Shown here piece by piece: positions 43,632-60,522 of a DNA stretch of 64,000 bases. Location of the stretch: assembly GCA_963816185.1 (NCBI GenBank), contig CAWFJJ010000028.1:352001-416000 (forward strand), in the 5' to 3' direction. The position numbers and the translations under genes are program-made. The stretch is from Thermoanaerobaculia bacterium (GTDB lineage Bacteria > Acidobacteriota > Thermoanaerobaculia > UBA5066). Each line of letters starts with the position of its first letter. Within the stretch, counting starts at the first letter, position 1. The notes under the pieces are model-generated. The model did not search any database. It was not told where the DNA came from and was given only the letters and a program-made list of their open reading frames with translations.

Positions 43632-43743
43632 GGTGAAGCCGCGAAGGTTACGCGGTCGGCCCGTGCCGGGCAAGGCTCAGGCCTTCATTTGATTCCAACT
43701 GATCATGTGGCGGACGCAAACGATCCCTTAGACTGCGCCGCGC

Positions 43744-44688
43744 ATGGCGAGAATCCGGACAGGAGTCGTGGGATGCGGCTATCTCGGCCGGCACCACGCT
43801 CGGATCCTCACGGAGCTCGCCGACTCCGAGCCCGTCGGCTTCGTCGAGCCGGACGACGCGACGGCGGCCACGATCGAGGCCGCGCACGGTCCGAAAGGAC
43901 TCGCTCGGAGGCCTTCCGTCAAAGAGCTCCTGGGAGCGGGCGCGATGGCGGTCGTGGTGGCGTCTCCGACCTCCACCCACGCCGCGGTGGCGGAAGAGCT
44001 CCTCGCCGGGGGCGCCGACGTCATGGTCGAAAAGCCGATCACGGTCACCCTGGCCGAGGCCGACCGTCTCGTCGCTCTCGCGCGGGCCAAGGGCCGCATC
44101 CTTCAGGTCGGCCACATCGAGCGCTTCAATCCGGCGGTGGCCGCCGTGCGCCCGCTCGTCACGGATGTGAAGTTCATCGAGGCGCACCGGCTCGGGGTCT
44201 TCGTCCCGCGCGCGCTCGACGTGGACGTCGTCCTCGACCTCCTCGTCCACGACCTCGACATCGCGCTCGACCTCGTGGGCAAGCCGGTCACGGAGATCCG
44301 GGCGGTCGGCGTGCCGATCCTGAGCGAGAAGATCGACATTGCCTCGGTGCGCCTTTCCTTCGAGGGCGGGTGCGTGGCGAACCTGACCGCCTCGCGCGTC
44401 TCACAGGACAAGACGCGGAAGTTCCGGTTCTTCCAGCCCGACTGGTACTTCTCGATCGACACTCAGCACCGGGATGTGACGGCATTTCGTCTCGACCGCC
44501 TCAGCGGCCCGCCGCGCATCGTGCCGTGGCCCGTGACGGTCGAGCCCGCGGATCCTCTCACCGCCGAGGACTCCGCGTTCCTGAAGGCCTGCGCGGAGCG
44601 CACCGAGCCGGAAGTGACGGGCGAAGCCGGCCGCGCGGCGCTCAAGCTGGCGCTCGACATTCTCGAGGAGATGGGGCGGGGACGATGA
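43744..44688 (+). CDS. Gfo/Idh/MocA family oxidoreductase (GnnA-like)
   Basis: GVVGCGYLGRHH, VEKP, VGHIERFNPA, LDLLVHDLD, TASRVS. Confidence 0.9.
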   Translation: MARIRTGVVGCGYLGRHHARILTELADSEPVGFVEPDDATAATIEAAHGPKGLARRPSVKELLGAGAMAVVVASPTSTHAAVAEELLAGGADVMVEKPITVTLAEADRLVALARAKGRILQVGHIERFNPAVAAVRPLVTDVKFIEAHRLGVFVPRALDVDVVLDLLVHDLDIALDLVGKPVTEIRAVGVPILSEKIDIASVRLSFEGGCVANLTASRVSQDKTRKFRFFQPDWYFSIDTQHRDVTAFRLDRLSGPPRIVPWPVTVEPADPLTAEDSAFLKACAERTEPEVTGEAGRAALKLALDILEEMGRGR

Positions 44689-45719
44689 AGAGAAAAGGGA
44701 ACAAGAACTCTTTCTTATATACGGCGGCTGCTGATGCAGCCGCCGATAGAAGAAAGTCTTCTCCCCGAATGGTCGATGTCAAGGGCGTGCTTCGCGCGCC
44801 GCGCAGCGGTCGCAGACCCTTGACATCGGCCATTCGGGGAATACGGTCGTCGACCAAGTCTTTGCGGCGCATCGGCCTCATCGGCGGCTCGGGTCTTTAT
44901 TCACTTCCCGGCCTCGAGATCACTCGCGAAATCGGGCTTTCGACGCCCTTCGGCGACCCCTCCGACTCTTTCTTTCTAGGAAGTCTCTCTTCGGTCCCTG
45001 TCGCATTTCTCGCGCGTCACGGACGTCACCATTCGTTCCTGCCTTCCGAGATCAACTACCGAGCGAACGTCTGGGGGTTCAGGAAGCTCGGCTGCTCGTG
45101 GCTTCTCTCGGCCTCGGCCTGCGGCTCGATGAAGGAGTCCTACGCGCCGGCCGACATCGTCCTGCCGGACCAGTTCCTCGACTTGACGAAGCGGCGCGTC
45201 TCGACGTTCTTCGGAGACGGCTGTGCGGCGCACGTGTCGTTCGCGCACCCCGTTTCGGCCGTTCTTCTCGACGCTGTGGAGGCGGCCGCGAAGGCGGAAG
45301 GGGCCGTGTGCCATCGAGGCGGAACGTACGTGTGCATCGAAGGACCCCAGTTCTCGACGAAGGCCGAGTCTCTGCTCTACCGTTCCTGGGGCGCGGACGT
45401 GATCGGGATGACGAACGCCACCGAGGCAAAGCTCTGCCGCGAGGCGGGGATCGGCTATGCGTCGATGGCGCTCGTCACGGACTACGACTGCTGGCACGAG
45501 GAGCAGGCCGCGGTCTCGGTGGAAGCTGTCCTCGACGTCCTGAAAAGAAACGCCGGCACCGCGAATCGCGTCCTCGCGAACGCCGTTCGCCGCCTCGACC
45601 CGGACAGCCCGAGCGACTGCGCGGACGCCCTCGAGTGGGCCGTTCTCACGCCGAGGAACCGGATCAGTCCCGCCGCCTCGAAGCGCCTCGCGCTTCTTCT
45701 GAACAAGGACGAGAGATGA
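44685..45719 (+). CDS. mtnP: S-methyl-5'-thioadenosine phosphorylase, with a repeat-derived N-terminal extension if started at ATG 44685 (alternative TTG 44862)
   Basis: IGLIGGSGLY, TPFGDPSD, RHGRHH, NYRAN, EGPQFST, IGMT, VTDYDCW; ATGA overlap with the upstream gene. Confidence 0.92.
   Translation: MKRKGNKNSFLYTAAADAAADRRKSSPRMVDVKGVLRAPRSGRRPLTSAIRGIRSSTKSLRRIGLIGGSGLYSLPGLEITREIGLSTPFGDPSDSFFLGSLSSVPVAFLARHGRHHSFLPSEINYRANVWGFRKLGCSWLLSASACGSMKESYAPADIVLPDQFLDLTKRRVSTFFGDGCAAHVSFAHPVSAVLLDAVEAAAKAEGAVCHRGGTYVCIEGPQFSTKAESLLYRSWGADVIGMTNATEAKLCREAGIGYASMALVTDYDCWHEEQAAVSVEAVLDVLKRNAGTANRVLANAVRRLDPDSPSDCADALEWAVLTPRNRISPAASKRLALLLNKDER
44706..44840. repeat. Composite palindromic repeat copy 1: hairpin A (44722-44745) plus cruciform B (44762-44840)
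   Basis: A: CGGCGGCTGC-tgat-GCAGCCGCCG. B: TCCCCGAATGGTCGATGTCAAGGG...CCCTTGACATCGGCCATTCGGGGA. Near-identical to 58373-58490. Confidence 0.92.
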
Positions 45720-46726
45720 CCGCACGCCGCATCGTCGTTACCGGGTCCGTCGCCTACGACTACCTGATGACCTTCCCGGGGAAATTCCTCGACGTCGTCA
45801 TCCCCGACCGCATGGACCGCCTCTCGGTGTCGTTCCTCGTGGACTCCATGCGGAAAGTGCGGGGGGGCGTGGCTCCGAACATCGCCTACACGCTCGCGCT
45901 CCTCGGCCTCAGGCCCCTCGTCATGGCGACGGCGGGCGTCGACGCGCTCGATTACAGCCGGTGGCTCTCCGAACAGGGGGTCGACACCTCATCCCTGCAC
46001 ATTTGCGACGATCTTTTCACGGCCTCGTTCTTCGTCTCGACCGACGAATCGCAGAACCAGATCGCGACGTTCTATGCGGGGGCGATGGCGCGGGCGGCGA
46101 CGCTGTCCTTCCGCGAGCTCTCGCCGAGCAGCGTGAGCCTCGCGATCATCGCGCCGAACGCTCCCGAGGCGATGGCGAAATACGCGACGGAGTGCCGCGA
46201 GCTCCACATCGCATTCGCGTACGACCCGAGTCAGCAGGTGGCGCGGCTTTCGGGTGACGAGATTCTCGAGGGGCTGCGGGGCGCGGCGATGCTCATCGCG
46301 AACGAGTACGAGTTCGGCGTCATCGAGCTCAAGACCGGCCTCTCGGAAGCCGCGGTCCTCTCGCACGTGCCGGTTCTCATCGTGACGCGAGGCGCCGAAG
46401 GTTCCACGATCGCGCTCCGGGGCGGCCAGCCGGAGGCTGCCGCCGGCGTGTCGACGTTCCGCATTCCGCCCGCCCGCCTCCGCGGGCCCGCAGTCGATCC
46501 GACGGGCGTGGGAGATGCGTTCCGCGGGGGCCTCCTTGCCGCACGCCACCACGGCCTGCCGTGGGAGGTCGCGGGCCGCGTGGGAAGCGTGGCAGCCGCC
46601 TACTGCCTGGAAGCCCTCGGACCGCAGCCACCGCGGTATGCCGTCGCCGACTTCATCGCGCGTTACGGCGAGAACTTCGGCTCCGAAGGAGCTCACTCGC
46701 GTGTCAGCGACCTCGCGCCGCGGTGA
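45716..46726 (+). CDS. PfkB-family carbohydrate/adenosine kinase
   Basis: VTGSVAYD, GGVAPNIAY, NQIATFYAGAM, DPSQQ, NEYE, VDPTGVGDAFRGG. Confidence 0.92.
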   Translation: MTARRIVVTGSVAYDYLMTFPGKFLDVVIPDRMDRLSVSFLVDSMRKVRGGVAPNIAYTLALLGLRPLVMATAGVDALDYSRWLSEQGVDTSSLHICDDLFTASFFVSTDESQNQIATFYAGAMARAATLSFRELSPSSVSLAIIAPNAPEAMAKYATECRELHIAFAYDPSQQVARLSGDEILEGLRGAAMLIANEYEFGVIELKTGLSEAAVLSHVPVLIVTRGAEGSTIALRGGQPEAAAGVSTFRIPPARLRGPAVDPTGVGDAFRGGLLAARHHGLPWEVAGRVGSVAAAYCLEALGPQPPRYAVADFIARYGENFGSEGAHSRVSDLAPR

Positions 46727-46729
46727 AGC

Positions 46730-46738
46730 TGATACACT
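46730..46738 (+). promoter_or_regulatory. Extended -10 box (TGaTACACT), 10 nt before the ribH ATG
   Basis: TGn-TAnnnT pattern with no SD between it and ATG 46749. Confidence 0.55.
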
Positions 46739-46748
46739 CCTGGGTCCA

Positions 46749-47246
46749 ATGAACGTGATCGAAGGGCACCTTTCCTCGGCGGGCCGGCGCTTCGGCGTCG
46801 TGGCGGCGCGCACGAACGAGCTCGTCGTGTCGCGCCTCCTCGAAGGCGCCCTCGACGCCTTCCGCCGGACCGGTGCTGCCGACGAGGACGTCGTCGTGGT
46901 GCGCGCCCCGGGCGCGTGGGAGCTTCCCCTCACCCTTCGCGATCTCGCGCGCTCGGGCAAGTTCGACGCGCTCGTGGCGCTCGGCGCCGTCGTTCGCGGC
47001 GGCACGCCGCATTTCGAGTACGTGGCGAGCCAGGCGGCGAAAGGTGTTTTCCAGGTCTCCCTCGAGCTCGACCTCCCCGTGGCGCTCGGAGTCCTGACGT
47101 GCGACACGCTCGAGCAGGCGCTCGAGCGCTCGGGCGCCAAGGGCGGGAACAAAGGCTTCGAGGCGGCGATGGCCGCGGTCGAGGCCGCCGATCTCCGGGC
47201 CCGTCTGAAGAAAGCCCCCGCTCGCTCGTCGCGCCCGACACGCTGA
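46749..47246 (+). CDS. ribH: 6,7-dimethyl-8-ribityllumazine synthase
   Basis: PGAWELP, LGAVVRGGTPHFEYV, GVLT, NKGFEAA; lies upstream of nusB. Confidence 0.95.
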   Translation: MNVIEGHLSSAGRRFGVVAARTNELVVSRLLEGALDAFRRTGAADEDVVVVRAPGAWELPLTLRDLARSGKFDALVALGAVVRGGTPHFEYVASQAAKGVFQVSLELDLPVALGVLTCDTLEQALERSGAKGGNKGFEAAMAAVEAADLRARLKKAPARSSRPTR

Positions 47247-47264
47247 GAGCCGGACGGAGGACGC

Positions 47265-47705
47265 GTGAGCGGCCGCCGGCGGAAGTCGCGAGAGCTGGCG
47301 CTTCAGCTCCTCTACCAGAACGACCTCGCAGGGACGCCGCCCGAGGAGATGTTCCAATACACCGAGGAGTACGTCCTCGCGAAACCCGAGGTCCAGGAGT
47401 ACGCCGAACGCCTCGTCCGGGGCACCCTTTCGCGCCGCGACGAGCTGGACGCGAAGCTCTCCGAGCGCTCCGAGCACTGGCGCCTCGGGCGTATGGCCGC
47501 CGTGGACCGAAATCTTCTTCGCCTCGCGCTCTACGAGCTCCTTTATGAAGAGGACACCCCGGACCCCGTCGTGATCGACGAAGCCGTGGAAATCGCGAAG
47601 AAGTTCTCGACGCCGTCCTCGGGGCCGTTCGTGAACGGCGTCCTGGACGGCATCCGCCGCGCCACGTTCGGCCCGCGCGTTCGGAGCGGGGGAGAAAGCG
47701 GATGA
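47265..47705 (+). CDS. nusB: Transcription antitermination factor NusB
   Basis: RRKSRELALQLLY, W...R...VDRNLLRLA, IDEAVEIAKKF, FVNGVLD. Confidence 0.95.
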   Translation: MSGRRRKSRELALQLLYQNDLAGTPPEEMFQYTEEYVLAKPEVQEYAERLVRGTLSRRDELDAKLSERSEHWRLGRMAAVDRNLLRLALYELLYEEDTPDPVVIDEAVEIAKKFSTPSSGPFVNGVLDGIRRATFGPRVRSGGESG

Positions 47706-48598
47706 CGCCTCGGGCGCTGCTTCTCACCCTCCTCTTCGCGTGGGGCGTCCCGGCCGCGGGGCAGGACTCCGGCGAGTGGGCCCGATACAGGCTCGATGGA
47801 CCCGCGCCGTGGCGGTATGCGCAGGCCGTGGAAGCGGCCGGCTATCGCGTCGTGCTCTCTTCGGCGGACGGCAAGACGCTGGAAGCGCGCGTGGAGGTGT
47901 CCGCCGCACCGTTCACGGCGGACGCGCCGTTTCCGCCCGCCCCGTCGACCCTCTCCGCCGAAGCGCGGACGGCGCTCGCCGATCCCCTCGCGGACGATCC
48001 GGACCTCGACTTCCTGTCCGAGAGGCTTCTCGCGGGCTCGAGGACGACGCTCGAGGCCGTCGAACGGGTCATCGCGTTCACGGCGCACCGCGTTCGCTAT
48101 GCGCTGCCGGACGGCTCGCCCGAGACGGCCTCCCGAACGCTCCGCCAGCGCCGCGGCTCGTGCGTGGGACGCTCGCTCCTGGCGGCCGAGCTGCTGCTTC
48201 GCTCCGGGGTTCCGGCCCGGCAGGTGACCGGCATTCTGGCCGCGCAGCGCGCCCGGGAGCTCACTCCGGAGTCGCGCGCCGTGTTCAACGCGGAGCTGGG
48301 CGGCGTGCGGCACCGCTGGATCGAGGTCTTCGTGCCAGGCCTGGGCTGGGTGCCTTCCGATCCGAGCGGGCTCGCGAACACGGTGACGTCGAGGCATCTC
48401 GCGCTCGAAAGGCAGCCCCCCGCCGGTTTTCACGTGGACGTCGCCGGTCGCTCCGCCGAGCTGAAGCGGCCCGTTCTCGAGACCGCCGAAGGCGGCCTGA
48501 CGCTCTACCGGCCGCGCGGGGCGAGCATCGTGGAGGCCGTTGAAGGGGCGCCGCTCGACCCGCGGGCGCTCGCGGCCCCGCCGCCCGCGCGCCGCTGA
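47702..48598 (+). CDS. Secreted transglutaminase-like domain protein
   Basis: Signal peptide; GSCVGRS, HRWIEV and WVPSDP give a Cys-His-Asp triad. Confidence 0.82.
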   Translation: MTPRALLLTLLFAWGVPAAGQDSGEWARYRLDGPAPWRYAQAVEAAGYRVVLSSADGKTLEARVEVSAAPFTADAPFPPAPSTLSAEARTALADPLADDPDLDFLSERLLAGSRTTLEAVERVIAFTAHRVRYALPDGSPETASRTLRQRRGSCVGRSLLAAELLLRSGVPARQVTGILAAQRARELTPESRAVFNAELGGVRHRWIEVFVPGLGWVPSDPSGLANTVTSRHLALERQPPAGFHVDVAGRSAELKRPVLETAEGGLTLYRPRGASIVEAVEGAPLDPRALAAPPPARR

Positions 48599-48634
48599 CG
48601 CCGCGCCTCTCCGTCGTTTACACTCGCCGACTCG

Positions 48635-51190
48635 ATGCAACGCACCGCGACGGCGACCACGAAGGCCGACGAAATCCTCAGGATCGAGGCGAAGTGGCGC
48701 GACCGCTGGGAGGCGGACCGCGCCGCATTCGTGGATACGACGAAGCCCGCGGGGGACGGAACATACCTCCTCGTCATGCTTCCTTATCCCTCGGGCGACC
48801 GCCTGCACGTCGGGCACGCGCGCACATATTTCCTGACCGACGCGCTCCAGCGCTTCCTGCGCCAGACGGGCGTGACCGTGTTCTGCCCGATGGGCTGGGA
48901 CGCGTTCGGCCTGCCTGCCGAGAACTACGCGATCCAGAAGGGCATCCATCCGCGCACCTCCACGCTCGCGAACATCGCGGCCATGAAGGAGCAGTTCCGG
49001 ACGTGGGGCGTTCTTTACGACTGGACGAAGGAAGTCACGACCTGCGAGCCCGAGTACTACCGCTGGAACCAGTGGTTCTTCCTGAGGCTCCTCGAAAAAG
49101 GCCTGGCGGTCCGCAGGAAGGCCGCGGTGAACTGGTGCCCGTCGTGCGAGACCGTCCTCGCGAACGAGCAGGCCGAGGGCGGCGTCTGCGACCGGTGCGG
49201 CACTGCGGTGGTGCCCCGCGAGCTCGAGCAGTGGTTCCTGAAGATCACCGACTACGCCGAGCGCCTGCTGGACGGCCTCGACACGCTCCGCAAATGGCCC
49301 GAGAAGGTCGTCACGATGCAGCGCAACTGGATCGGCAAATCCACGGGCGCCGATCTGGATTTCGCGATCCCGAAGCTGAACGAGACGGTCCGCGTCTTCA
49401 CGACGCGCCCGGACACCGTCTTCGGCGCCACGGCGCTCATCCTCGCGCCCGAGCACGCGCTCGTCCCGCGCCTTCTCGAGGGCCATCCGAAGCGGGCCGA
49501 GCTGGAGGCCTGGGTCAATTCCGTGCGCAGCCAGGAGCGCATCGTCCGCGAGGCCGAGGGAGCCGAGAAGGACGGCCGCGACACCGGCCGCACGGCGATC
49601 AACCCCTTCACGGGGAAGGAAGTGCCCGTGTGGCTCGCGAACTTCGTCATCGCCGACTACGGCACGGGCGCGCTCATGGCGGTACCCGCGCACGACACGC
49701 GCGACTTCGAGTTCGCGAAGAAGTACGGCATCCCCATCGTCAGGGTGATCGAAGAGGGGAAGAGAGAAAAGAAGGAAGATTTGCTTAGAAAGGAAGAGGG
49801 GGAGGGCGCAGCGGCGGCCAGCGGCGACGCGGCTTTGACAGGCCTTCCATACACGGGCGAGGGCCCGCTCATTGCCTCCGGACCATTCACAGGAATCTTC
49901 TCTTCTCTTGCCCGAGAATTCATCGCAGCCGATGCCGCGAATCGCGGCATCGGCGGGCCGCGCGTGCGGTATCGGCTCCGCGACTGGCTCATTTCGCGTC
50001 AGCGCTACTGGGGCACGCCGATTCCCATGATCCACTGCGAGAAGGATGGCTGGGTGAGTGTGCCGGAGAAGGACCTGCCGGTCGTGCTGCCGCCTGACGC
50101 GCCGTTCACGGGCAAGGGCGGCAATCCGCTCGAGAAGGTCGCTTCGTTCGTCCAGACGACGTGCCCTTCGTGCGGAGGCCCGGCCAGGCGCGAGACGGAC
50201 ACGATGGACACGTTCGTGGACTCGTCCTGGTATTTCCTCCGGTACATTGACCCGAAGAACGGCGCGGCGCCCTTCGATCCCGCAATCGTGAGGGAATGGG
50301 CGCCGGTCGACCAGTACATCGGCGGCATCGAGCACGCGATCCTCCACCTCCTGTACGCGCGGTTCTTCACCCGCATCCTGAAGGACCTCGGCCTCGTGAC
50401 GTTCGAGGAGCCGTTTTCGGCTCTCTTCAACCAGGGCATGATCACGCGCCTGTCCCCGACGGGCCGCGTGGAGAAAATGTCGAAGTCGCGGGGCAACTCG
50501 GTGTCTCTCGACTCGCTCATCGCGGAGAAGGGAGCCGACGCCGTGCGCGCGTTCGTCCTCTTCCTCGGGCCGCCGGAGAAGGACGCCGAGTGGAGCGACG
50601 AGGGCATCAGCGGGCCGGAGCGCTTCCTCTGGCGCGTGCGGGGCGCCGTGGACCGGTTCCTCGCGACGGGCGCCGATCCGCAAGCACAGCCGGCGGCGGC
50701 CGACACGCCCGCGGCGCGCGCGCGCCACATGGCGATCAAGAAGGTCACGGAGGACTTCCGGGCGTTCTCGTTCCACACGGCCGTGGCGCACCTCATGGAG
50801 CTGCTCAACGGCGCGGCGGTCCTCGTGAACGACGCGGGCGCGGACGCGGGGGAGACCGCGACGACGCTGCGCACGCTCGTCACGCTCCTCCATCCCATCG
50901 CGCCGCACCTGTCGGAGGAGCTGCACGAGAGGATGGGCGGCACGAAGAGCCTCCTTGCCTCGGGCTGGCCGACCTACGATCCGGCGCTCGCCGAGATGGA
51001 AGAGGCTTCGATCGCCGTGCAGGTGTCGGGGAAGGTGCGTGCCGAGATCAAGCTGAGAAGAGGATCTTCCGAGAAAGAGGCGCTGGCCGCCGCCCAGGCT
51101 GAGGCGGCGCTCTCGCGGTGGCTGGAAGGAAAGCAGATCGTCAAAACCATCTGGGTTCAGGATCGACTGTTGAACATCGTCGTGCGATGA
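48635..51190 (+). CDS. leuS: Leucine--tRNA ligase
   Basis: [59 protein letters not shown]. Confidence 0.97.
49751..49800. repeat. Module C purine tract inside leuS (encodes [16 protein letters not shown])
   Basis: Purine tract containing GAAGATTTGCTTAGAAAG; shared with ileS and with the reverse complement of 58538-58575. Confidence 0.75.
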
Positions 51191-51194
51191 GGAG

Positions 51195-51896
51195 ATGCTG
51201 CTTTCGGATTTTTCTGATATGCGGCGGCGGCTGATGCAGCCGCCGATGGATGGCAACGTGCCCTCGGCTGGCCGGAGTCAAGGGTCTTCGACCGCTACGC
51301 GGCGCGCGAAGCGCGCCCTTGACACCGACCAGCCGAGAGCTATCCCTCTCTCTTTTTCCTTCAAAGAAATCTCTCTTTCTTCTCTTTCCTTTCTTGTCTT
51401 TCTTGCCTTCGCTGCCTCTTCGTCCGGCTGCGGGTACACGCTCGTGGGGACCGGGTCGAGCGCGGTGCCCGTCGGCGTCAAGACGGTATACGTGCCGACG
51501 TTCATCAATGAGACGACGGTCGTGGGCCTCGAGCAGCGCCTCACGGACGCCGTCATTCGCGAGCTTTCCGCGCGTGGCCGTCTCAAGCCCGTGTCGGACA
51601 GGGGGGCGGCGGATTCGGAGCTGTCCGGGCAGCTGACATCCGCGTCGGTCGCCCCCGTCCGCTTCGACGCGAACGGAATCGCCGTCGAATATCAGGTGAC
51701 CGTTACCGGAAAGATCGTTCTCACCGAGAAGGCCACCGACAAGCCCATCTTCTCCGAGCCCGCTTACCTGTTCCGGCAGCCATACACCGTGCCGTCGAGC
51801 GCCAGCTCGTATTACGACCGAGAGCGCGAGGCCATCGAGGCGATGGCCCGCCCCTTCGCGCAGAACCTCGTCACGACGATCCTGGAAGGATTCTGA
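51195..51896 (+). CDS. lptE: LPS-assembly lipoprotein LptE with a repeat-derived long signal region
   Basis: SGCGY at 51423-51437, 'VYVPTFINET..GLEQRLTDAV', position after leuS. Confidence 0.85.
   Translation: MLLSDFSDMRRRLMQPPMDGNVPSAGRSQGSSTATRRAKRALDTDQPRAIPLSFSFKEISLSSLSFLVFLAFAASSSGCGYTLVGTGSSAVPVGVKTVYVPTFINETTVVGLEQRLTDAVIRELSARGRLKPVSDRGAADSELSGQLTSASVAPVRFDANGIAVEYQVTVTGKIVLTEKATDKPIFSEPAYLFRQPYTVPSSASSYYDREREAIEAMARPFAQNLVTTILEGF
51211..51410. repeat. Composite palindromic repeat copy 2: A (51222-51245), inverted B (51263-51337), pyrimidine tract C
   Basis: TTCTGATATGCGGCGGCGGC-tgat-GCAGCCGCCG; GTCAAGGG...CCCTTGAC with the loop reverse-complemented relative to copies 1 and 4; TTCAAAGAAATCTCT. 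Confidence 0.9.
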
Positions 51897-52089
51897 AAAA
51901 GGCGCGAGGAAACGTATCGGTTTCGCGGCGGCTGGTTTCTTGCCGATATCGAGTCTCACTCACATTCAGGATACAATGGCAGATGTTGAGAGGGAGTGAC
52001 GTCGCTCGTCTCCCTCCGTCGCGGGATTGCTGTCGCGTATTTGGGTAGCCAAACGGCGCGCGACCCGCTCCCCCTCATAGGGGGTCGTC

Positions 52090-54571
52090 TTGCGCGATAT
52101 CACGCTGCGAGAGCGGGCCGACGAATCGATTGAGAAGCTCGTCCGCGCCGTGGAGCAGGCGAAGAACGTCATCCTCATGACAGACCCGAACGGGACCATC
52201 ACGTACGTCAATCCCGCTTTCGAGGAGATCTACGGCTATTCCATGCAGGAGGCGCTCGGCAAGACGCCACGGATCCTGAAGAGCGGCCAACACGACAAGG
52301 ATTTCTACAAACGTTTCTGGCAGAGGCTGCTGGCCGGCGAAACGGTGCGAGAGCAGTTCGTCAACAAGACCCGAGATGGCCGGCTCGTCACCGTGGAAGG
52401 TCTCGTCAGTCCCGTCCTCGATGCCCAGGGGCAGCGCAGCGGTTTCATCGCCGTGCAGGAGGACATCACCGAGCGAAAGCGCTCCGAAGCGCGGATTCTG
52501 CAGCTCAACCGCCTCCTCAGGACGATCTCCGAGGTCAATCAGCTCATCGTCCGTGCGCAGGACCGCGCGGCTCTTCTCTCGGAGGCCTGTCGTGTTCTCG
52601 TGGACCACGGCGGCTTCGAGTTGGTCTGGATCGGTTTCGTCGACGCCGCGTCACAGGTTGTCGTTCCCGCGGCGCGAGCAGGTGTACGCCCCGAGTACCT
52701 CGCTGGAATCGTCGTCCGGTGCGACGACACGCCGGAGGGGCGAGGACCGGTGGGCACGGCGATCCGGACGGGACGGTTCGCCGTCGTGGAAGACGTCGAA
52801 ACGGATCCGTCGGCTGCTCCCTGGCGCGAGCGAATGCTCGCGTACGGGTTCAAGACCGTCGCGGCTTTTCCTATTCGGAGCGGGGGCGCCGTGAGGGGCG
52901 CTCTCGGGGTGTACGCCTCGAAAGCTGTTGAGATCGGCCACGAGGAAACGACTCTCCTCGACGAGCTCGCGCACGACATCGGTTTTGCGCTCCAATCGCT
53001 CGAGAACCGCGACGAGCGGCGTCGGGCCGAGGAGGCCCTGGCAAGAAGCGAGCTCTACTTTCGATCTCTCTTCGAGAACGCACAGGACATCATTACGGTC
53101 ATCGACGCCGGGGGACTGATCCTCTTCGAGAGCCCGTCCGTCGAGCGGATCATGGGGCTTCCGCCGGACGCGTACGTTGGAAAGAGCGCGTTCGAGTTCG
53201 TCCATCCCGACGACGTGGCCGCCGTTCAGGCCGCCCTGCAGCGCGCCTCCGCCAACCCGGGGCTGCCCCAGTCCGCACTGTTTCGCTTTCGCCACGCCGA
53301 CGGCTCCTGGAGGACCCTCGAGGGGATCGGCAGCCTCCTGACGGGCGAATCTTCTTTCCGGTTCGTGGTGAACTCCCGTGACGTGACCGAAAGCCGCGCC
53401 CTGGAGCAGCAGCTTCGGCAGGCACAGAAGATGGAGGCCGTCGGGCGGCTTGCGGGCGGAGTGGCGCACGACTTCAACAACCTGCTGACCGCGATCCTGG
53501 GCTATTCGGACCTGCTGGCGGGGCAGGCCGGCGAGGGGAGCCCGCTGCGGGAATCCATCGAGGAGATCCGAAAAGCGGGGGAACGGGCCGCTTCGCTCAC
53601 TCGGCAGCTCCTGGCCTTCAGCCGCAAGCAGGTTCTGGAGCCCGTGGTGCTGCGGTTGAACGACCTGGTCGAAAACGTCGAGAAAATGCTGCGGCGCGTG
53701 ATCGGAGAGGACGTACGGCTGGTCACGCGTCTGGGCGACTCCGTGGGCAACGTCCGGGCGGATCCGGGACAGCTCGAGCAGGTGATCGTGAACCTCGCCG
53801 TCAACGCCCGTGACGCCATGCCGAAGGGCGGCACGCTGACGATCGAGACGGCCGATGTCGAGCTGGACGGCGTCTACGCGCAGAGACACGCCATGGTTCC
53901 TCCCGGCCGCTACACGATGCTGGCGGTCAGCGACACGGGCGTCGGGATGGATGCGGCCACGCAGGAGAGGATCTTCGAGCCCTTCTTCACGACGAAGGAG
54001 AAGGGCAAGGGCACGGGCCTCGGGCTCTCGATGGTATACGGCATCGTCAAGCAGTCAGGGGGATACATCTGGGTCTACAGCGAACCGGGGAAGGGGACGA
54101 CCTTCAAGGTGTATCTGCCGACGGTCGGGGAAGGCGGTCTCGGATCTTCCAGCGAGATCCGCGGAGTTTCATCCGGCCGTCGGAGCCGAAACGGTCCTGC
54201 TCGTCGAGGACGAGCCGGCGATCCGCACTCTCGCCCGCCGGGTTCTCGTGGAGCGCGGCTACCGCGTGCTCGAGGCGGGCAGCGGGACGGACGCCCTGGA
54301 ACAGGTCCGCGCAGAAAAGGGGCCGATTCACCTGCTCCTCACGGACCTCGGGATGCCGGACATGGGCGGAATGGAGGTCGCATCCGGCGTGCAAGAGCTT
54401 CATCCAGACATCCGCGTGCTCTTCATGTCCGGGTATACCGACGACGGGGTGGTCCGCAACGGGCTCCTCGAACCGAGACGGGCTTTCCTGCAGAAGCCCT
54501 TCACGCCGTCCGCCCTTGCGCGCAAGGTGCGCGAGGTGCTGGACGCGCCTGAGCAAGGCTCGGCCGCCTGA
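52090..54571 (+). CDS. PAS-GAF-PAS hybrid histidine kinase with receiver domain (CckA-like); frameshift near 54150
   Basis: [39 protein letters not shown]; the receiver (VLLVEDE, LLTD, QKPF) is in ORF 53855..54571. Confidence 0.9.
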
Positions 54572-54575
54572 GCAC

Positions 54576-55124
54576 TCACTTCCCGGCAGGGCGGGGGCTG
54601 CCTGTTTCCAGAAAGTTCTTGAGCCTTCCCACCTGCTCGCCGACCACTTCGTCCACGATCGGCGCGATCTTCTCGAATCCTCCCGCCATATAGCCGCCGA
54701 TGCCGTACGTGACCACGAGCTTCGTGCCATCTTCGGCTTTCGCGAGGTCCCACGTCATGCTCCCGGCGAGCCCCAGGCCCTGAAGGGGGCCGATGGCGCC
54801 GGTCATGCGCAGCGCCTTGCCCGGGCCTGCGTAGACGACGGTCATGTGCTGGACCCCGCCGCCGTCCGGGAACCTCTCGCAAAAGCAGCCGCCCGGAACG
54901 GCGGCGATCGAGAGGTTCCTGGCATCGTGTGAAAACGTGTGCTCCGGATTCCACCAGCTCCCTACCTTCGCGGTGAGCGTGTCGTAGACGACTCCGGGGG
55001 TGGCCTTGATCGCGACTTCGTGCTTCACGGCGAAACCGCTCGGGCCGACGCTCATGACTTCCGCGGAAAGGGGCGCGGAGAGAAGCGCCACCGCGCAGAC
55101 CAGAATGGATGGAAGTTCTTTCAT
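54576..55124 (-). CDS. Secreted SRPBCC/START-fold protein
   Basis: Signal peptide, 'WWNPEHTFS...GGCFCE...LRMTGAIGPLQ'. Confidence 0.75.
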   Translation of the reverse strand: MKELPSILVCAVALLSAPLSAEVMSVGPSGFAVKHEVAIKATPGVVYDTLTAKVGSWWNPEHTFSHDARNLSIAAVPGGCFCERFPDGGGVQHMTVVYAGPGKALRMTGAIGPLQGLGLAGSMTWDLAKAEDGTKLVVTYGIGGYMAGGFEKIAPIVDEVVGEQVGRLKNFLETGSPRPAGK

Positions 55125-55166
55125 TTCTGATATTCGGGGCTGCTGATGCAGCCCCGATAGTAGAAA
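55124..55166. repeat. Repeat copy 3: hairpin A only (55134-55157)
   Basis: TTTCTGATAT-TCGGGGCTGC-tgat-GCAGCCCCGA-TAG. Confidence 0.85.
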
Positions 55167-55183
55167 CTCTTCTCGCGAGAGCT

Positions 55184-55459
55184 TTATTTCGCGGCGGCTT
55201 TTTTCGCCTTGTTCACGGTCTTCGAAATCCGCGATTTCAGGCGGGACGCCGTCTTCCTGTGGAGGACGCCTTTGCGGACGGCGACGTCGAGCTCGGAGAC
55301 CGCGTTCGAGAGGAAGCTGCCGACCTTTTCGGCGTCGGTTTCCGCCGTCCTGCGGAGATTCTTCACGACGTTGCGGACCTGGGTGACGACGGAGCGGTTG
55401 CGGGCCCGGCGGCGGTCGCTCTGCGCGGCGCGCTTCTTGGCTTGCTTGGTGTTCGCCAT
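55184..55459 (-). CDS. rpsT: 30S ribosomal protein S20
   Basis: MANTKQAKKR...RRARN...KGVLHRKTASRLKSR. Confidence 0.96.
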   Translation of the reverse strand: MANTKQAKKRAAQSDRRRARNRSVVTQVRNVVKNLRRTAETDAEKVGSFLSNAVSELDVAVRKGVLHRKTASRLKSRISKTVNKAKKAAAK

Positions 55460-55492
55460 GTGGTTTCGATGAGGCCTTTCTCTGGAGAGCGT

Positions 55493-56341
55493 TCAGCGGG
55501 AATCGCCGCCGAGGGACTTGAGGCGCTGACGCGCGCTCTTGGCCTCGTCGGAGCCGGGGAACTGGTTGACGACGAAGTTCAGCTCGACCATGGCCTGGGC
55601 CTTCTCGCCGAGCTCGAGATGGGCGATTCCCTTTTTGAGGTGCGCAGCCGGGGCTTTGTCGCTCTGCGGATACGTGCGAAACAGCTTGTCGAACGAGGCG
55701 ATCGCCTCGCGCGGCTTCTTCTGCGCGGACCAGCACTCTCCGGCCCAGTAGAGGGCGTCGTCGGAGAGATCGGTGCGCGGGAACTTCTCGGCGTAGTCCT
55801 CGAAACCCTGCCGCGCGAGATCGTATCGGCCGCGCTGATAGTCGGCCGTAGCCTGCGCGAAGAGGTCCGCCGGCGTGATACCTCCCCCGCGCGGGCCCGC
55901 GGCCGCCGGGACGGGACCGGCAGAGGACGGAGGCGGACCCTGCGGACCCGGAGAGGTCGCCGGCGGGGCGATCACGGCCCCGGCGAAGGGATGCCCCTGC
56001 GTCTCGGCGATCTGCTGGGAGAGCTGCGTGAGGCGCCGGTTCGCATCCTCGAGCTTCCCGGCGAGGGCCTGCATCTCGCGCGTCAGGTCGTCGAACCTCG
56101 TGCCCAGATCGGCGTTCGAGCGGAGGAGCGTCTGCGCCTGCTTGGCCAGGGTCTCGTTCAGCTTCGCAACCTCCTCCTTGGAGGAAGACTGCTTCGAGAC
56201 GGCGTCGACTTTCTTCTCGACCGTCGAAAGGTGCTGGTGAAGGCCGTCGATGTCGCTGCCGCTGACGCAGCCGGTCACCGCCGCGAGAAGTCCCGCGGTC
56301 AGGGCAAGGCGGCCGGCTCGCGTGACGCGCGGGCGGGTCAC
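55493..56341 (-). CDS. cpoB: Tol-Pal system protein YbgF/CpoB
   Basis: Lipoprotein signal (VTGC), coiled coil, TPR (ALYWAGE, YPQSDK, AHLKKG); lies after pal. Confidence 0.9.
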   Translation of the reverse strand: MTRPRVTRAGRLALTAGLLAAVTGCVSGSDIDGLHQHLSTVEKKVDAVSKQSSSKEEVAKLNETLAKQAQTLLRSNADLGTRFDDLTREMQALAGKLEDANRRLTQLSQQIAETQGHPFAGAVIAPPATSPGPQGPPPSSAGPVPAAAGPRGGGITPADLFAQATADYQRGRYDLARQGFEDYAEKFPRTDLSDDALYWAGECWSAQKKPREAIASFDKLFRTYPQSDKAPAAHLKKGIAHLELGEKAQAMVELNFVVNQFPGSDEAKSARQRLKSLGGDSR

Positions 56342-56886
56342 TTCGCGGTGACGACGAAGTGGGCGCGGCGGTTCTTCTGCCACGAGTCTTCGTCGTGCCC
56401 GGTCGCGAAGGGGCGCTCCTTGCCGTAGGACACGGTCTTGATCCGCCCCGCGTCCACGCCGAGGGAGACCAGGTAGTCCTTCGCGGCGTTCGCGCGGCGA
56501 TCGCCGAGCGCGAGGTTGTACTGCTCGGTGCCGCGCTCGTCGCAATGACCCTCGATCGTGAACTGTACGCTCGAGTACTTCTTCAGCCACGTCGCGTTCG
56601 CGGCGAGCACGTCGCGGGCGTCGGGGCGTATGTCGGCCTTGTCGTAGTCGAAGAACGCGGGCTTCAGGTAGCTCGAGATCTCGGCGAACGACCCCGCGAG
56701 CTCATCGGTGACCCTCGGCGTCGGCTGCGGAGCCGGCGGGGGAGTCTCCACGGTCACGACGGTGGGTGTCGAGACGGGTTCGGGAGTCGGCTCTGGGGCC
56801 GGCATGGGTTTTGGCTTCGGACTGCAGGCGACGATGAATGCGAGAGCGACGAGCGTGAGCGAACCGACCTTGAGGGACTGCTTCAT
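56338..56886 (-). CDS. pal: Peptidoglycan-associated lipoprotein
   Basis: IVAC lipobox, FFDYDK, IEGHCDERGTEQYNLALGDRRA, SYGKERP, NRRA. Confidence 0.96.
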   Translation of the reverse strand: MKQSLKVGSLTLVALAFIVACSPKPKPMPAPEPTPEPVSTPTVVTVETPPPAPQPTPRVTDELAGSFAEISSYLKPAFFDYDKADIRPDARDVLAANATWLKKYSSVQFTIEGHCDERGTEQYNLALGDRRANAAKDYLVSLGVDAGRIKTVSYGKERPFATGHDEDSWQKNRRAHFVVTAK

Positions 56887-56950
56887 GGAATCGAGCCTCC
56901 GTTGACGGGGGGATTGAGGGCGCCGGACGGCGACCATCCCGTCGGCGGCG

Positions 56951-58369
56951 TCATTCTAGCGTCTTGATCCACGAGGGGGAAAAATTGTTCCCGGAAGAGG
57001 TCACGATGCGGGGCGTGCCGCCGCCGTCCGCGTTTCCGACGGCGATCTGGGTCGAGCTGCCGCGCTGCACATCCCAGGCGATCTTCGATCCGTCCGGCGA
57101 CCACGTAGGGCTCTCGTGGGCGCCCGGCCCGCTCGAAATCTGCACGGTTCGCCCGGTTGCGAGGTCCATGACACAGATCTGGAAATCGCCCTCGTTCCGG
57201 CACGCGAACGCCATCCGCCCCCCGTCCGGCGAGAAAGTCGCCTCGTCGTTCCAGTTCCCGGCGAGCGAGACCCGACGCACGTTCGCACCCTCGAGGTCCA
57301 TCATGAAAATCTGGGGCGTGCCCTGGCGGTTCGACGTGAACGCCAGCTCGCGCCCGTTCGGGGACCACCGGGGCGTCGAGTCGATCGCCACGTTCTCGGT
57401 GAGCCGTTTCAGGTTCGAGCCGTCCGTCTGGACCGTGAAGATCTCGGTGTTCCCCTTCACGCTTCCGCAGAAGGCGATCGTCTTGCCGTCCGGGGAGAAG
57501 GACGGGGACGCGTTGAGCTGCGTCGGGACGCGAATCTGACGCTTGTCGCCTCCGTCCTTCCCGATGAGCCACAGGCCCGGCGTATCCTTCTCATACGACT
57601 GGTACACGATCTTCGCCCCGTCGGGAGACCAGTCCGGCGCGAGCGACAGCGTGTTCGAATAGGTGATCCGGCGCTGGTTGTCGCCGTCGAAGTCCATCGT
57701 GTAGATCTCCTTCACGACGTTCTTCCCCGCGACCCGGTCGCGGTCGGACGAAAAGGCGATCTTCGTCAGGAACGGCCCGGGTTTGCCCGTGAACTGGCGT
57801 ACGAGGTCGCTCGCGAGCGTGTGCGCGATGCGGCGCGCCGCCCGCATCTCGCCGGAGTACTTTCTGCCCATGATGGACTTGAGCGTGCTGAGATCCCAGA
57901 GAGTCGCCTCGACGACGACGCCCCCGCCGTCCGGCGCGAGGTGCGTATCGAGCAGGAACTGCGCCGACGTGGCTTTCCACGCGTCGCCCTCTTCGCGATT
58001 TTGGGGCGGGCGCATCCCCTTCGGGTAAAGAGCCGGATCGGCCACGACGAAGACGCCGGAGCCGGCGAGGTCGTCGGTGAGCGTCGTGTAGAAAGGATCC
58101 ACGGCCCGCGTCTGAAGGTCCGGCGAGATCGGCGCGACCGTCATCGGAATCGCCAGCGGCCGGCGTGCTCCGGTGGCTCCGGTGAGCGTGAGATCGATGT
58201 TCGAGGGCTGCGAGATCCCGGACATGGTCGGAACGGGCTTCGGCGCCTGGCCGAGAAGGGGCGTCGCCGCCAGAGCGAACAAGAGCGCTACGAGCGAGGA
58301 CCGGGGAGAGATATTTCTGATATTCGGGGTTCCTGATGCAGCCGCCCGGGGAAGGGATTCTTTTCTCAT
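56951..58369 (-). CDS. tolB: Tol-Pal beta-propeller protein TolB
   Basis: TolB_N (DDL..SG.F, RRIAH, F.TKIAF) plus six (W/F)SP(D/N)G-type repeats; lies upstream of pal. Confidence 0.93.
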   Translation of the reverse strand: MRKESLPRAAASGTPNIRNISPRSSLVALLFALAATPLLGQAPKPVPTMSGISQPSNIDLTLTGATGARRPLAIPMTVAPISPDLQTRAVDPFYTTLTDDLAGSGVFVVADPALYPKGMRPPQNREEGDAWKATSAQFLLDTHLAPDGGGVVVEATLWDLSTLKSIMGRKYSGEMRAARRIAHTLASDLVRQFTGKPGPFLTKIAFSSDRDRVAGKNVVKEIYTMDFDGDNQRRITYSNTLSLAPDWSPDGAKIVYQSYEKDTPGLWLIGKDGGDKRQIRVPTQLNASPSFSPDGKTIAFCGSVKGNTEIFTVQTDGSNLKRLTENVAIDSTPRWSPNGRELAFTSNRQGTPQIFMMDLEGANVRRVSLAGNWNDEATFSPDGGRMAFACRNEGDFQICVMDLATGRTVQISSGPGAHESPTWSPDGSKIAWDVQRGSSTQIAVGNADGGGTPRIVTSSGNNFSPSWIKTLE

Positions 58370-58593
58370 ATGCGGCGGCTGCTGATGCAGCCGCCGAATA
58401 CTTGAAATCTGCTTCCCGAATGGCCGATGTCAAGGGCGCGCTTCGCGCGCCGCGGAGCGGTCGCGGACCCTTGACATCGGTCATTCGGGGAATACGGCCT
58501 CTCTGCAAAATCTCTTCTCTTCCTCCTTTCCTTTCTTCCACTTCTAAGAAAATCCTCTTCTTCTCTTCTTCTTTGTCTTTCAAAGAATTCCCC
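58314..58593. repeat. Composite palindromic repeat copy 4: degenerate A', A (58373-58396), B (58415-58489), pyrimidine tract C (58500-58593)
   Basis: Same A and B sequences as copy 1; C contains TTCTAAGAAAATC and TTCAAAGAATTC. Confidence 0.92.
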
Positions 58594-58594
58594 T

Positions 58595-59392
58595 TCACTG
58601 GAATTTCAGATGCACGCCGAGCGACTCGTTCCGGTAATCCGGCGGGAGCGGCGGGAGCGGGTTCGCGGCGTAGACGGCGCGCGCCGCGGCGCGGTCGTAG
58701 TAGCTCACGCCGGAGGACGAGTCGATCTTGACGTCCGTCACCTGTCCGGAGCGCAGGATGCGGAACGAGATGACGCAGCTCGTGCCTTCGGCCGACTCCG
58801 GCTTGAACCAGTTCGCGCCGATGAGCGAGAGGAGCTGCTCCACGTAGTACGAGAAGGGGAAGTCGGCGTCGAACGAGGTGACGGATGCCCCGAAGGAGAC
58901 ACCCTCGCCCGAGGTGCTGCCGTTCGCGGCGCCCGCGGCGCTCGGGAGCTCGAGAGCGGGCCCGCCGGGCTTCGCGGCGCCCGGAGCGGGCTTCGGTTTC
59001 TCGGGCTTCGCGTGCTTCTTCGGCTCGGGCATCGCTTTCGCGGAGGGCTGGACTTTTTCCGTGGGCTTCTCGATGACGGGCTTTGCCTTCGGCGCCGGCG
59101 CCGGCTCAGCGGGCGCCGCCACGGGGGCGGGAGCGGGCGGGGCCTGGGGCCGGCCGAGGGAGGCCGGGCTCACGACACGGACGGGCAGGGACATCGGGAC
59201 GAAGACCGGCGCCTTGCGCGGCTTGCCGATGAGGAGAACGAGCGCGAGGAAGGCCGCGTGGCCGAGGATCGAGACGGCGACCGTCAGGGACCGCGGGGGA
59301 AGGCCGGTGTGCGATCGCCGCGCGAGGATGTCCGAGACGGTGGGCGCGGGAAGAGCCTCCGCGCGCGCGGTCACCGTGCTCATCGCCGTCAT
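58595..59392 (-). CDS. tolA: TolA/TonB family energy transducer
   Basis: TM helix with SxxxH (SILGH), Pro/Lys-rich linker, C-terminal SSG..YD.AA.RAV..ANPLPPLP. Confidence 0.85.
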   Translation of the reverse strand: MTAMSTVTARAEALPAPTVSDILARRSHTGLPPRSLTVAVSILGHAAFLALVLLIGKPRKAPVFVPMSLPVRVVSPASLGRPQAPPAPAPVAAPAEPAPAPKAKPVIEKPTEKVQPSAKAMPEPKKHAKPEKPKPAPGAAKPGGPALELPSAAGAANGSTSGEGVSFGASVTSFDADFPFSYYVEQLLSLIGANWFKPESAEGTSCVISFRILRSGQVTDVKIDSSSGVSYYDRAAARAVYAANPLPPLPPDYRNESLGVHLKFQ

Positions 59393-59811
59393 CGACCGCC
59401 CTCGCTCCGGAGCTCGGTCACCATTCCCAGGCTCTCGACACCGAGCCGGTTCAGCGTGTCCATGGTCTCGACGACGACGCCGTACGCGAGGTTGCGGTCG
59501 GCCTTCAGGTAGACGGCCTTGTCGCGGCGGCGCGAGAGGATGAGCTTCAGCCGGTCCCGGAGCTGGCTCTTCGGAATCGGCGTCTCGTTCAGATAGTAGT
59601 TCCCGTTCTTCGTGATGGAGAGGATGAGCGGGTCCTCGGGCGTCTTTGGAAGGTTCTGCGCCACGGACTTCGGGAGCTGGACCTCGACGCCCTGATGAAG
59701 GAGCGGTGCCGTGACCATGAAGATGACGAGGAGCACGAGCATGACGTCCACGAGAGGCGTGACGTTGATATCCGAGAAGGCGTTCGCATCGTCGTCGAGC
59801 TTGAAAGCCAT
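59389..59811 (-). CDS. tolR: TolR/ExbD
   Basis: INVTPLVDVMLVLLVIFMVTAP, LKAD...YG.VV. Confidence 0.92.
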   Translation of the reverse strand: MAFKLDDDANAFSDINVTPLVDVMLVLLVIFMVTAPLLHQGVEVQLPKSVAQNLPKTPEDPLILSITKNGNYYLNETPIPKSQLRDRLKLILSRRRDKAVYLKADRNLAYGVVVETMDTLNRLGVESLGMVTELRSEGGR

Positions 59812-59825
59812 GGGACAGTCCTGCC

Positions 59826-60522
59826 CTAGGTGAAGTGGCGCTCGGCCAGGTTCATGAACTCGAGCTCGAAGTCGCGCATCTCGGCGCGCGCCGCGCGCAT
59901 CTTCCCGCTGAAGTTGTTGTACGCGATGAGCGCGGGCACCGCGGCGACGAGGCCGGCCGCGGTGTTGATGAGGGCCTCCGCGATGCCCGGCGCCACGACG
60001 ACGATCGACGTCGAGCCCTTCTGGGCGATCTGCTGGAACGCGATCATGATGCCCATGACCGTTCCGAAGAGGCCGATGAAAACCGTGGCCGAGGCGGTCG
60101 TGGCGAGGAACGACATCCCGCGCCCGAGGCGCGTCGTCTCGACGCCTGCCGCGCGCTCGAGCGCGCGCTCGATGGAGGCGAGGCTCTTCACGAAGAGGCG
60201 TCCGGTGTCGGCCGGCGCCACTTCGCGGCCGTCCTTCACCTGCTGGTCCAGCTCGGCGTAACCCGCGCGGAAGATGCCGACGAGCGGGCTCGACTCGCAC
60301 TTGTCGCAGACTGCCGAGAACGTCGGCGAATTTGCGGCTCTTGCGGAAGTGGTTCAGGAACGCGCGCGAGTCGGACGCGGCGCGTGAGAAACTCCACAGC
60401 CGGCCGATGATGATTGCCCACGACACCAGGGAGAAAAAAGCGAGCACGATCAGGACGGCCTTCGCCGTCGGTCCCGCCGAAAGGAAGAGCTGGGCGATGT
60501 TCGAGCCGCCGGTTTCCGTCAT
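59826..60522 (-). CDS. tolQ: TolQ/ExbB proton channel; frameshift near 60310
   Basis: N-terminus FSLVSWAII is in one frame; FIGLFGTVMGIM and VAPGIAEAL..TAAGL..AVPA are in the next. Confidence 0.88.

Follow-up and report, generated by a model that had tools for sequence, protein, structure and literature searches.

A component of the machinery that puts lipopolysaccharide into the outer membrane, LptE requires export and lipid modification. In an uncultured soil bacterium of the Thermoanaerobaculia (Acidobacteriota), short repeats that occur genome-wide encode the export signal of LptE; they are most likely translated, the product being cut off afterwards. The lptE gene lies in the window analyzed here, a stretch of 64,000 nucleotides (nt) that comprises positions 352001 to 416000 of contig C28 in genome G000, a metagenome-assembled draft (5.09 Mb, 67.2% GC, 30 contigs, 94.9% complete); coordinates are those of the window, and features are on the + strand unless stated otherwise. 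We consider it reasonably probable that the LptE precursor carries an unusually long leader that is repeat-encoded and translated. How translation, start choice, export, and cleavage of this leader would proceed, we infer from sequence comparison. Translation would begin at an ATG supplied by or beside a hairpin repeat (A), and the ribosome would read A and a neighboring palindrome (B) as an Arg/Lys-rich extension of the signal-peptide n-region. It would then read the pyrimidine arm of a short repeat found across the genus, in which the core TTCAAAGAA gives F-K-E and Phe, Leu, and Ser codons give the hydrophobic core and the lipobox, and the whole leader would be removed at the Cys encoded at 51429 by the lipoprotein pathway. 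The observations that carry this reading are the anatomy of the leader, the repeat families, the conservation of the frame across the genus, and the loss, in the lptE frame, of the stop codons of the repeat core.

Anatomy of the lptE leader

The longest open reading frame (ORF) of lptE spans 51195-51896 and encodes 233 amino acids (aa). It matched the LptE family PF04390 with 66.3 bits (cut-off 23, E value 5.3e-18) over aa 95-228, which places the domain at 51477-51878, and it matched no other Pfam family at E values up to 0.1. The TGC codon at 51429-51431 is taken to encode the lipidation Cys, residue 1 of mature LptE, because the Cys and the motif that it opens (C-G-Y-x-L-V-G; the Cys is followed by GYTLVGTGSS in G000) are aligned and kept in the loci of all 30 relatives, 23 from the genus and 7 from two sister families. 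The mature protein is 71 to 94% identical to its genus orthologues and stop-free, indicating that lptE is under selection. The gene upstream is leuS (leucyl-tRNA synthetase, 851 aa, 48635-51190, stop TGA at 51188-51190); over its C-terminal 60 aa, it aligns with the gene that precedes lptE in the relatives. The order leuS-lptE was found in all 32 distinct junction sequences collected from the genus (29 genus genomes plus genome and metagenome contigs) and in 7 of 7 outgroup loci.

The lptE frame was read codon by codon for starts, with near-cognate codons listed as well. Its canonical in-frame starts are ATG 51195, 51219, 51234, and 51246 and GTG 51258; from 51261 to 51428 there is no in-frame ATG, GTG, or TTG, and the only near-cognate in-frame codons past GTG 51258 are ATC 51342 and ATC 51369. 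The five starts give leaders of 78, 70, 65, 61, or 57 aa, respectively, and palindrome B is read through from all five and hairpin A from four of them. A first-pass annotation of this DNA had proposed the gap without starts between GTG 51258 and the Cys, the forced passage through B, a leader of 57 to 78 aa, and an h-region (hydrophobic region) encoded by a pyrimidine tract; each of these held up here, and the tract can now be recognized as the arm of a repeat with the core TTCTAAGAA, which reads TTCAAAGAA at lptE.

Signal-peptide features were scored heuristically (charge, uncharged run, and Kyte-Doolittle hydropathy). All of the candidate leaders close with 20 uncharged residues in a row and then SSG-C, 7 to 10 Lys plus Arg stand in the n-part ahead of this run, and the best 10-aa Kyte-Doolittle mean of the hydrophobic core, a heuristic value, is 2.68. 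One example of a leader-encoded peptide is RRAKRALDTDQPR. The lipobox pattern of lipoprotein signal peptides of the Sec/SPII type is [LVI][ASTVI][GAS]C; the lipobox of G000 reads S-S-G-C, and those of the relatives are mostly L-L-G-C, L-S-G-C, or V-S-G-C, with SSGC also found in L066 and L067. A Tat signal was rejected, as TRRAKRAL has no hydrophobic residues after RR and lies ∼20 residues ahead of the core (judged by eye).

Hairpin A (51211-51250) is a predicted fold with the stem CGGCGGCTG / CAGCCGCCG; its loop holds ATG 51234, and its ATATG head carries ATG 51219. It has 26 blastn matches in the 5.09-Mb genome, including direct copies at 44711-44750 and 58362-58401. Palindrome B (51262-51338), defined by inverted-repeat pairs, has arms of ∼22 nt that include TGTCAAGGG and CCCTTGACA; it is read as PSAGRSQGSSTATRRAKRALDTDQPR and occurs at 46 loci genome-wide.

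The pyrimidine arm (51339-51428, confirmed by Logan contigs) has its core TTCAAAGAA at 51360-51368 and encodes AIPLSFSFKEISLSSLSFLVFLAFAASSSG, which constitutes the h-region and lipobox and includes the hydrophobic core LSSLSFLVFLAFAASSSG. Its GC fraction is 0.50 to 0.52, compared to 0.67 for the genome. The core of the repeat family, TTCTAAGAA (TTCTTAGAA on the other strand), occurs at 337 sites and TTCAAAGAA at 60, where composition predicts ∼6 to 11. At lptE the core reads TTCAAAGAA (F-K-E) instead of TTCTAAGAA, so that the in-frame TAA is gone. Around the core, the family consensus reads cCCTCTTCACC-TTCTAAGAA-ATCT and continues into a stretch rich in pyrimidines; a strong asymmetric consensus, CCCTCTTCACC-core-ATCT and then pyrimidines, is exemplified by the site at 58534-58542. 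By gene calls from a crude codon-usage caller (coding fraction, 0.83), on which all intergenic and genic counts given here rest, 196 of the 337 family sites are intergenic and 141 genic, and the purine orientation is open in one frame only (FLEGEE).

The leuS-lptE junction across the genus

The 32 genus junctions come in several forms. Eight have no insert, with 38 to 50 nt from the leuS stop to the Cys, an overlapping GTGA or ATGA start, and leaders of 14 to 18 aa (e.g., M-KPFKEILLFSFLLGLLG-C in L008 and M-KKEIFLFSSLLGLLG-C). Seventeen, plus L046, which the search pattern had missed, carry an insert termed D, whose parts, in order, are a purine tract with an inverted core (GATTCTTCGAGTGG) at its end, a center rich in GC, and CCTTTCAAAGAAATC with a pyrimidine tract. 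Four forms are shortened, and two, those of G000 and of a second genome, G008 (locus L009), carry A and B. The ends of D match many other sites in the relatives' genomes, and its center does not; when the relatives' D inserts were compared with G000 by blastn, only the tract and core parts matched, the D center being no repeat there. Among 14 pairs predicted in the D insert, covariation analysis found 0 compensatory changes, and we make no structural claim for D.

In 29 of the 32 junctions, the frame is kept and stop-free from a start that overlaps the leuS stop to the Cys, with inserts of 38 to 167 nt (one of the 29 has GTA at the overlap position, plus an in-frame ATG). With their frames kept and open in this way, the long repeat-encoded leaders look translated, and they appear to be the rule in the genus. 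The stretch from the start to FKE has nine different lengths (9, 12, 16, 30, 31, 33, 34, 35, and 38 codons), implying at least 8 length changes, all of them multiples of three. At five D-type junctions (L002, L006, L010, L014, and L020), the overlapping GTG is the sole canonical start before the hydrophobic core, and the leaders are 46 to 54 aa long.

The stop codons of the repeat provide a further line of evidence, one that does not depend on length. Read in the lptE frame, the family core would terminate translation in either arm, as TTC TAA GAA in the pyrimidine arm and as TCT TAG in the purine arm. TAA is present in 0 of 24 lptE pyrimidine-arm cores, compared to 337 of 397 (85%) exact genomic cores, and TAG is absent from all 18 D-type purine arms, 17 of which have TCG or TCA and one of which (L046) has TCT CCG. 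Taking frame and stop codons together, we regard translation through the repeat DNA ahead of the h-region as probable.

The FKE-type core was found in 24 of the 32 genus junctions, including no-insert genomes such as that of L008, compared to 0 of the 7 loci from sister families, which have leaders of high GC content rich in Ala and Leu. In a maximum-likelihood tree of the leuS 3' end and mature lptE, each of the three main clades contains D-type junctions, forms without an insert occur here and there over the tree, and the two A/B genomes fall into different well-supported clades. We take the pyrimidine arm with FKE to be ancestral at lptE in the genus and older there than A/B. Our reading is that a repeat with both arms stood at the 5' end of lptE in the genus ancestor and was later trimmed several times and that A/B entered the lptE leader twice or moved between lineages. 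The proposal of the first-pass annotation that repeat DNA serves as the LptE export signal thus survives in part: the h-region is a repeat arm, and its translation is probable, but A/B did not bring this arm, which appears ancestral in the genus.

Two other junctions showed unusual features of their own. In G008, leuS reads CGAGTGAGG where the relatives have CGATGA or AAGTGA, so that the LeuS stop is lost as assembled and the frame reads through A and B until a B-arm TGA; either a genuine extension of the C terminus or an error of one base in the assembly may account for this. In the sister family f3 (L029 and L024), the junction holds 24-nt units in tandem (7 of them in L029), each of which duplicates the leuS end with its GGTGA; these repeats are in frame with lptE and offer several candidate GTG starts.

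Start codon and alternative explanations

The ancestral ATGA start position is still present in G000 as ATG 51187, which overlaps the leuS stop, but it lies in frame +1: the distance from the leuS stop to the Cys, modulo 3, is 1 in G000 versus 2 in 29 of the 32 junctions. The resulting 15-codon ORF (51187-51234) ends at TGA 51232-51234 in the hairpin A loop, where the stop overlaps ATG 51234 (TGATG). The sequences of G000 and G008 can be aligned across A, B, and the tract; the two genomes share ATG 51219, ATG 51234, and GTG 51258 and do not share 51195 and 51246. After ATG 51219, the two sequences differ by indels of +6 and -12 nt, and before it they differ by 1-nt indels. Since ATG 51219 is shared and only the indels downstream of it keep the frame, we favor this element-borne codon as the start of lptE in G000 over 51195 and 51234. 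ATG 51195 could be used by re-initiation 4 nt past the leuS stop, and at ATG 51234, where the A doubles as the final stop-codon base of the 15-codon frame, initiation may be coupled to that frame.

Several observations weigh against a translated leader of this kind. The RNA from 51180 to 51440 folds strongly (-113.2 kcal/mol; z, -4.7). No Shine-Dalgarno-like sequence lies at the usual distance from any of ATG 51219, 51195, and 51234, and a GAGGAG touches ATG 51195 with zero spacer. The codon-usage caller chose GTG 51444, downstream of the Cys, which means that the leader is unlike ordinary coding sequence. The lipobox SSG-C has Ser, not Leu, Val, or Ile, at position -3. The Cys of lipoproteins usually lies within about the first 15 to 35 residues (PROSITE lipoprotein rule), and here it is at residue 58 to 79 for each canonical start, far beyond that range; in the relatives, it is residue 46 to 58 in D-type genomes and 15 to 19 in no-insert genomes. 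As for the frame, 24 of the 24 insert-bearing junctions are open in frame 0, 20 are open in frame -1, and 10 in frame -2, and openness by itself is weak evidence in GC-rich DNA. Slippage in purine and pyrimidine tracts may favor length changes by triplets. The A/B leader is present in two genomes only, where the frame evidence amounts to two indels, with a chance expectation of ∼1 in 9, and the frame is broken at L003, where D nevertheless contains an in-frame GTG.

The main rival to a translated repeat leader, which we judge unlikely, is that A/B form an untranslated 5' leader and that initiation of LptE takes place downstream of B at a non-canonical codon such as ATC 51369 or ATC 51342. Both codons are in frame (ATC 51369 encodes the I of FKEI) and would give leaders of the typical lengths of 20 and 29 aa, respectively. 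The region upstream of them is non-coding by codon usage and strongly structured, ATC follows AAAGAA in many relatives, and L015 has ATG at that codon. Yet the position of ATC 51369 is occupied by AAT in L009, GTC in L002, and TTC in L020, none of them near-cognate, and a leader starting at 51369 would lack a charged n-region (0 Lys plus Arg). A start downstream of B would also leave unexplained both the in-frame upstream start in 29 of 32 junctions and the loss of the core stops. A scan of 50900-51700 for sigma-70-like promoters returned 0 sites, and by the rule used, the TTGACA in the B arm has no paired -10 box. Two weak terminator-like matches at 51335-51352 were no more than were found in shuffled sequences.

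It is also conceivable, though we think it quite improbable, that the hydrophobic core merely resembles the repeat, signal peptides rich in Phe, Leu, and Ser being pyrimidine-rich anyway, and was never repeat DNA. The 90-nt tract 51339-51428 gave no long blastn match elsewhere in the genome, and a flank weight matrix built from the 337 family sites scored the lptE site at 28.3 bits, a value reached by 59% of random positions with ≥85% downstream pyrimidines; the core is missing, moreover, from some genus leaders (L007, L011, and L018). A small number of tracts (55 genome-wide) supplied most of these matched control positions, however, so that the controls cannot count as independent of the family. 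The lptE site agrees with 14 of the 15 positions of the family 15-mer CCTTCTAAGAAATCT, of which there are 35 exact copies in the genome. D-type genomes have the inverted purine-arm core upstream, like other copies of the repeat, the GC-rich Ala/Leu leaders of the sister families lack the core (0 of 7), and the DNA block CCTTTCAAAGAAATCTTCCTCTTC is more conserved across the genus than its surroundings. We regard the lptE tract as a member of the short-repeat family, an assignment for which we rely on the core, the sequence right beside it, and the comparison of genomes and give the flank matrix no weight.

An assembly error (a base missing or extra that hides a normal start) or a decaying lptE is very improbable: the genome is a metagenome-assembled draft in 30 contigs (94.9% complete), its ancestral ATGA start is off frame by one base, A/B are unbridged by contigs, and the apparent loss of the leuS stop in G008 could likewise be an error, but contigs from other sequencing runs match 51025-51222 and 51329-51598 without gaps, the architecture recurs in an independent genome (G008), the mature protein is intact and conserved, and the +1 frame from ATG 51187 meets a TGA in hairpin A, so that a single downstream indel would not rescue it. 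In detail, Logan contigs from two runs matched 51329-51492 with 0 differences and 51350-51598 with 1 difference and no gap, and a third contig spans 51025-51222 gap-free. None of the contigs in four Logan contig sets bridges A/B, as the repeat interrupts them. The indel near 51370 that the first-pass annotation had considered, one restoring a conventional start, was not seen in the contigs over 51329-51598.

Repeat copies elsewhere and comparison with known systems

Further copies of the elements lie on either side of lptE in the window. At 44681-44846, an intergenic copy consists of a purine tract, then A, and then B. At 58328-58606, upstream of tolB, a partial A', A, and B occur together with pyrimidine tracts that have TTCTAAGAA and TTCAAAGAA cores. 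Relative to the B copies in these two arrangements (44770-44839 and 58414-58490), the B at lptE is inverted, and the neighboring A is direct. The asymmetric B loop is likewise flipped at lptE, and both loop orientations are present among the 46 genomic copies, a pattern that suggests that inversion took place across the arms. Genome-wide, the short repeat often encloses A/B units, with a left flank that ends in ..GATTTCTTA-TAT.. and a right flank that resumes with ..TTAGCA(A)GAAATCT and a pyrimidine tract (e.g., 44700-44715 and 58498-58545). These flanks, compared by eye, hint that the TTCTWAGAA core is an insertion target of A/B, possibly with a TTA/TTAG duplication.

That signal regions act as a safe haven for the element, as had been suggested, is not borne out. 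Forty of the 46 B loci are intergenic, and of the genes that flank B, 44 point toward the element, 41 point away, and 6 are far, giving no preference for gene starts. The short repeat, moreover, stands in frame in a cytoplasmic protein, LeuS (49751-49816, a purine-tract copy of 19 residues), and in protein kinases, where it is read as DFLEGEE, and its tracts also lie inside the ORF of another class I tRNA synthetase. Its presence in these proteins indicates that the repeats are tolerated in proteins generally and that leaders would be one such place and no special refuge. Of the 24 genus rows of the alignment, 18 have the LeuS insert, 4 lack it, and 2 are cut off, and the insert is absent from all 6 outgroup rows (one of which, L150, is from an unpublished genome). 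It varies in length and copy number over the genus, and some relatives have an extra insert (..ARDHSKKSSS..).

Other envelope genes have repeats at their 5' ends. The tolB gene (56951-58369, - strand; TolB_N and PD40 domains) has three candidate starts: ATG 58369, which the A copy carries in its CATATG head, TTG 58282, and ATG 58225. The statement that the TolB leader contains the A' copy is right if ATG 58369 is the start, and the in-frame TTG 58282 offers an alternative, although starting there would truncate the hydrophobic core. In the deepest clade of the genus, tolB has an ordinary leader (MGGSVNRP...); in nearer relatives, it has purine-tract cassettes with in-frame GTGA and TTG starts (TTTCTTTGAAAGG); and in G043, A/B lie upstream and are followed by ordinary starts. 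In G000, A/B run straight into coding sequence with no canonical start between in an FMN_bind protein (contig C21; YMRRLLMQPP...PFKEIFFFLFLLSSSLSLA) and in a lipoprotein-like ORF (contig C29; ...EFSLLLFFLSFVLLQG-C). The exported-looking FMN_bind protein, the C29 lipoprotein, and tolB show the same layout as lptE, A/B and then an h-region, with no start between. A/B also directly precede the coding sequence of an ORF whose sole start is the CATATG of A and which we take to be QueC-like from its N-terminal SGGLDS motif.

A broader and only tentative interpretation is that the short repeat (purine tract, TTCTTAGAA/TTCTAAGAA core, and pyrimidine tract) acts in this genus as a portable N-terminus cassette, by which the signal peptides and starts of envelope proteins would have been rebuilt repeatedly, with A/B homing in and bringing ATG starts in ATATG or CATATG. 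One orientation would supply a purine-rich ribosome-binding stretch, a TTG or GTG start, and a Lys/Glu-rich peptide, as before tolB in the relatives; the other would supply an FKE n-region and a Phe/Leu/Ser core, as in lptE, the FMN_bind protein, and the lipoprotein.

The closest known parallel is to the Rickettsia palindromic elements (RPEs), which are described as selfish repeats inserted in frame in protein genes (PMC10969869, citing Ogata 2000, 2002). Both are short, multi-copy, and partly palindromic, both are found between genes as well as in open frame inside essential genes (here LeuS and the lptE leader), and both are tolerated, since the encoded peptide does not disturb the protein. 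As with RPEs, an open-frame, multi-copy repeat was found here in conserved genes and is absent from orthologues, as seen for the LeuS insert and the variable lptE leaders. The likeness is one of analogy, in another phylum, and we claim no sequence relation. In contrast to RPEs, an arm here appears to supply the hydrophobic core of a signal peptide, probably together with the start codon in the A/B genomes, and the lptE inserts sit in the part that would be cleaved off and not in the mature fold. New compared to RPEs would be that repeats build the cleavable leader, and probably also provide its start codon, in an essential envelope lipoprotein; the evidence is the conservation of frame throughout the genus. 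Within the terms used, a literature search returned nothing on Thermoanaerobaculia repeats or on repeat-derived signal peptides.

[quoted passage not shown] B has inverted arms, and inspection of the flanks by eye hints at a possible TTA/TTAG duplication. They differ from REPs and MITEs in that no RAYT and no parent element with the same arms were detected in this 94.9%-complete genome. The search for a RAYT (Y1 transposase, PF01797) was negative in G000, with the control search positive in 6 of 14 known genomes, and no pair of B arms 80 to 5,000 nt apart, the spacing expected of a parent insertion sequence, was found in the genome. A scan of 41000-60000 against Rfam 15 gave nothing near the gathering score and only three sub-threshold matches at chance level.

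At the protein level, the leader recalls the extended signal peptide region (ESPR) of autotransporters, a conserved protein motif that forms an extended signal peptide on type V secreted proteins. The lptE leader would likewise add tens of residues to the N terminus, before otherwise normal n-, h-, and c-regions, but here the extension is repeat DNA that varies between species (D versus A/B). At the mRNA level, lptE codons 51369-51419 form an unbroken 17-codon run with a third-position pyrimidine, resembling SECReTE, for which ten or more NNY repeats are required. To our knowledge, no role of SECReTE is known in bacteria of the Acidobacteriota. SECReTE is described as a motif with a pyrimidine at every third base, enriched in secretome mRNAs, including those of prokaryotes (bioRxiv 10.64898/2026.10.12.758471). 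It is a compositional feature of mRNA and not a dispersed DNA repeat.

The lptE leader shows how genome-wide repeats can be tolerated inside essential genes. If the repeat-encoded leader is indeed translated, selfish or structural repeats would here have been recruited, in a clear case from nature, to serve as a working signal peptide and perhaps to provide a start codon, with modules swapped in and out within one genus while the frame was kept. It would also mean that lipoprotein export tolerates leaders of 45 to 78 residues, beyond the limits assumed by annotation rules, and that gene callers will mis-start such genes, as happened here when lptE was begun past the lipidation Cys. Protein-coding repeats in the style of Rickettsia would thereby be extended to free-living, GC-rich soil Acidobacteriota.

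Two further features of the window were noted. The class I tRNA synthetase gene at 40599-43673 (- strand, 1,024 aa, tRNA-synt_1) contains an inverted tract pair, a purine tract at 41845-41928 and a pyrimidine tract at 41960-42010, in that order, and the cores of this pair inside the ORF read TTGCTTAGAAAG / TTTCAAAGAATTC. At 27910-28098 and 30560-30749, two paralogous Ser/Thr-kinase-like genes ∼2.65 kb apart share stretches that are 73 to 87% identical.

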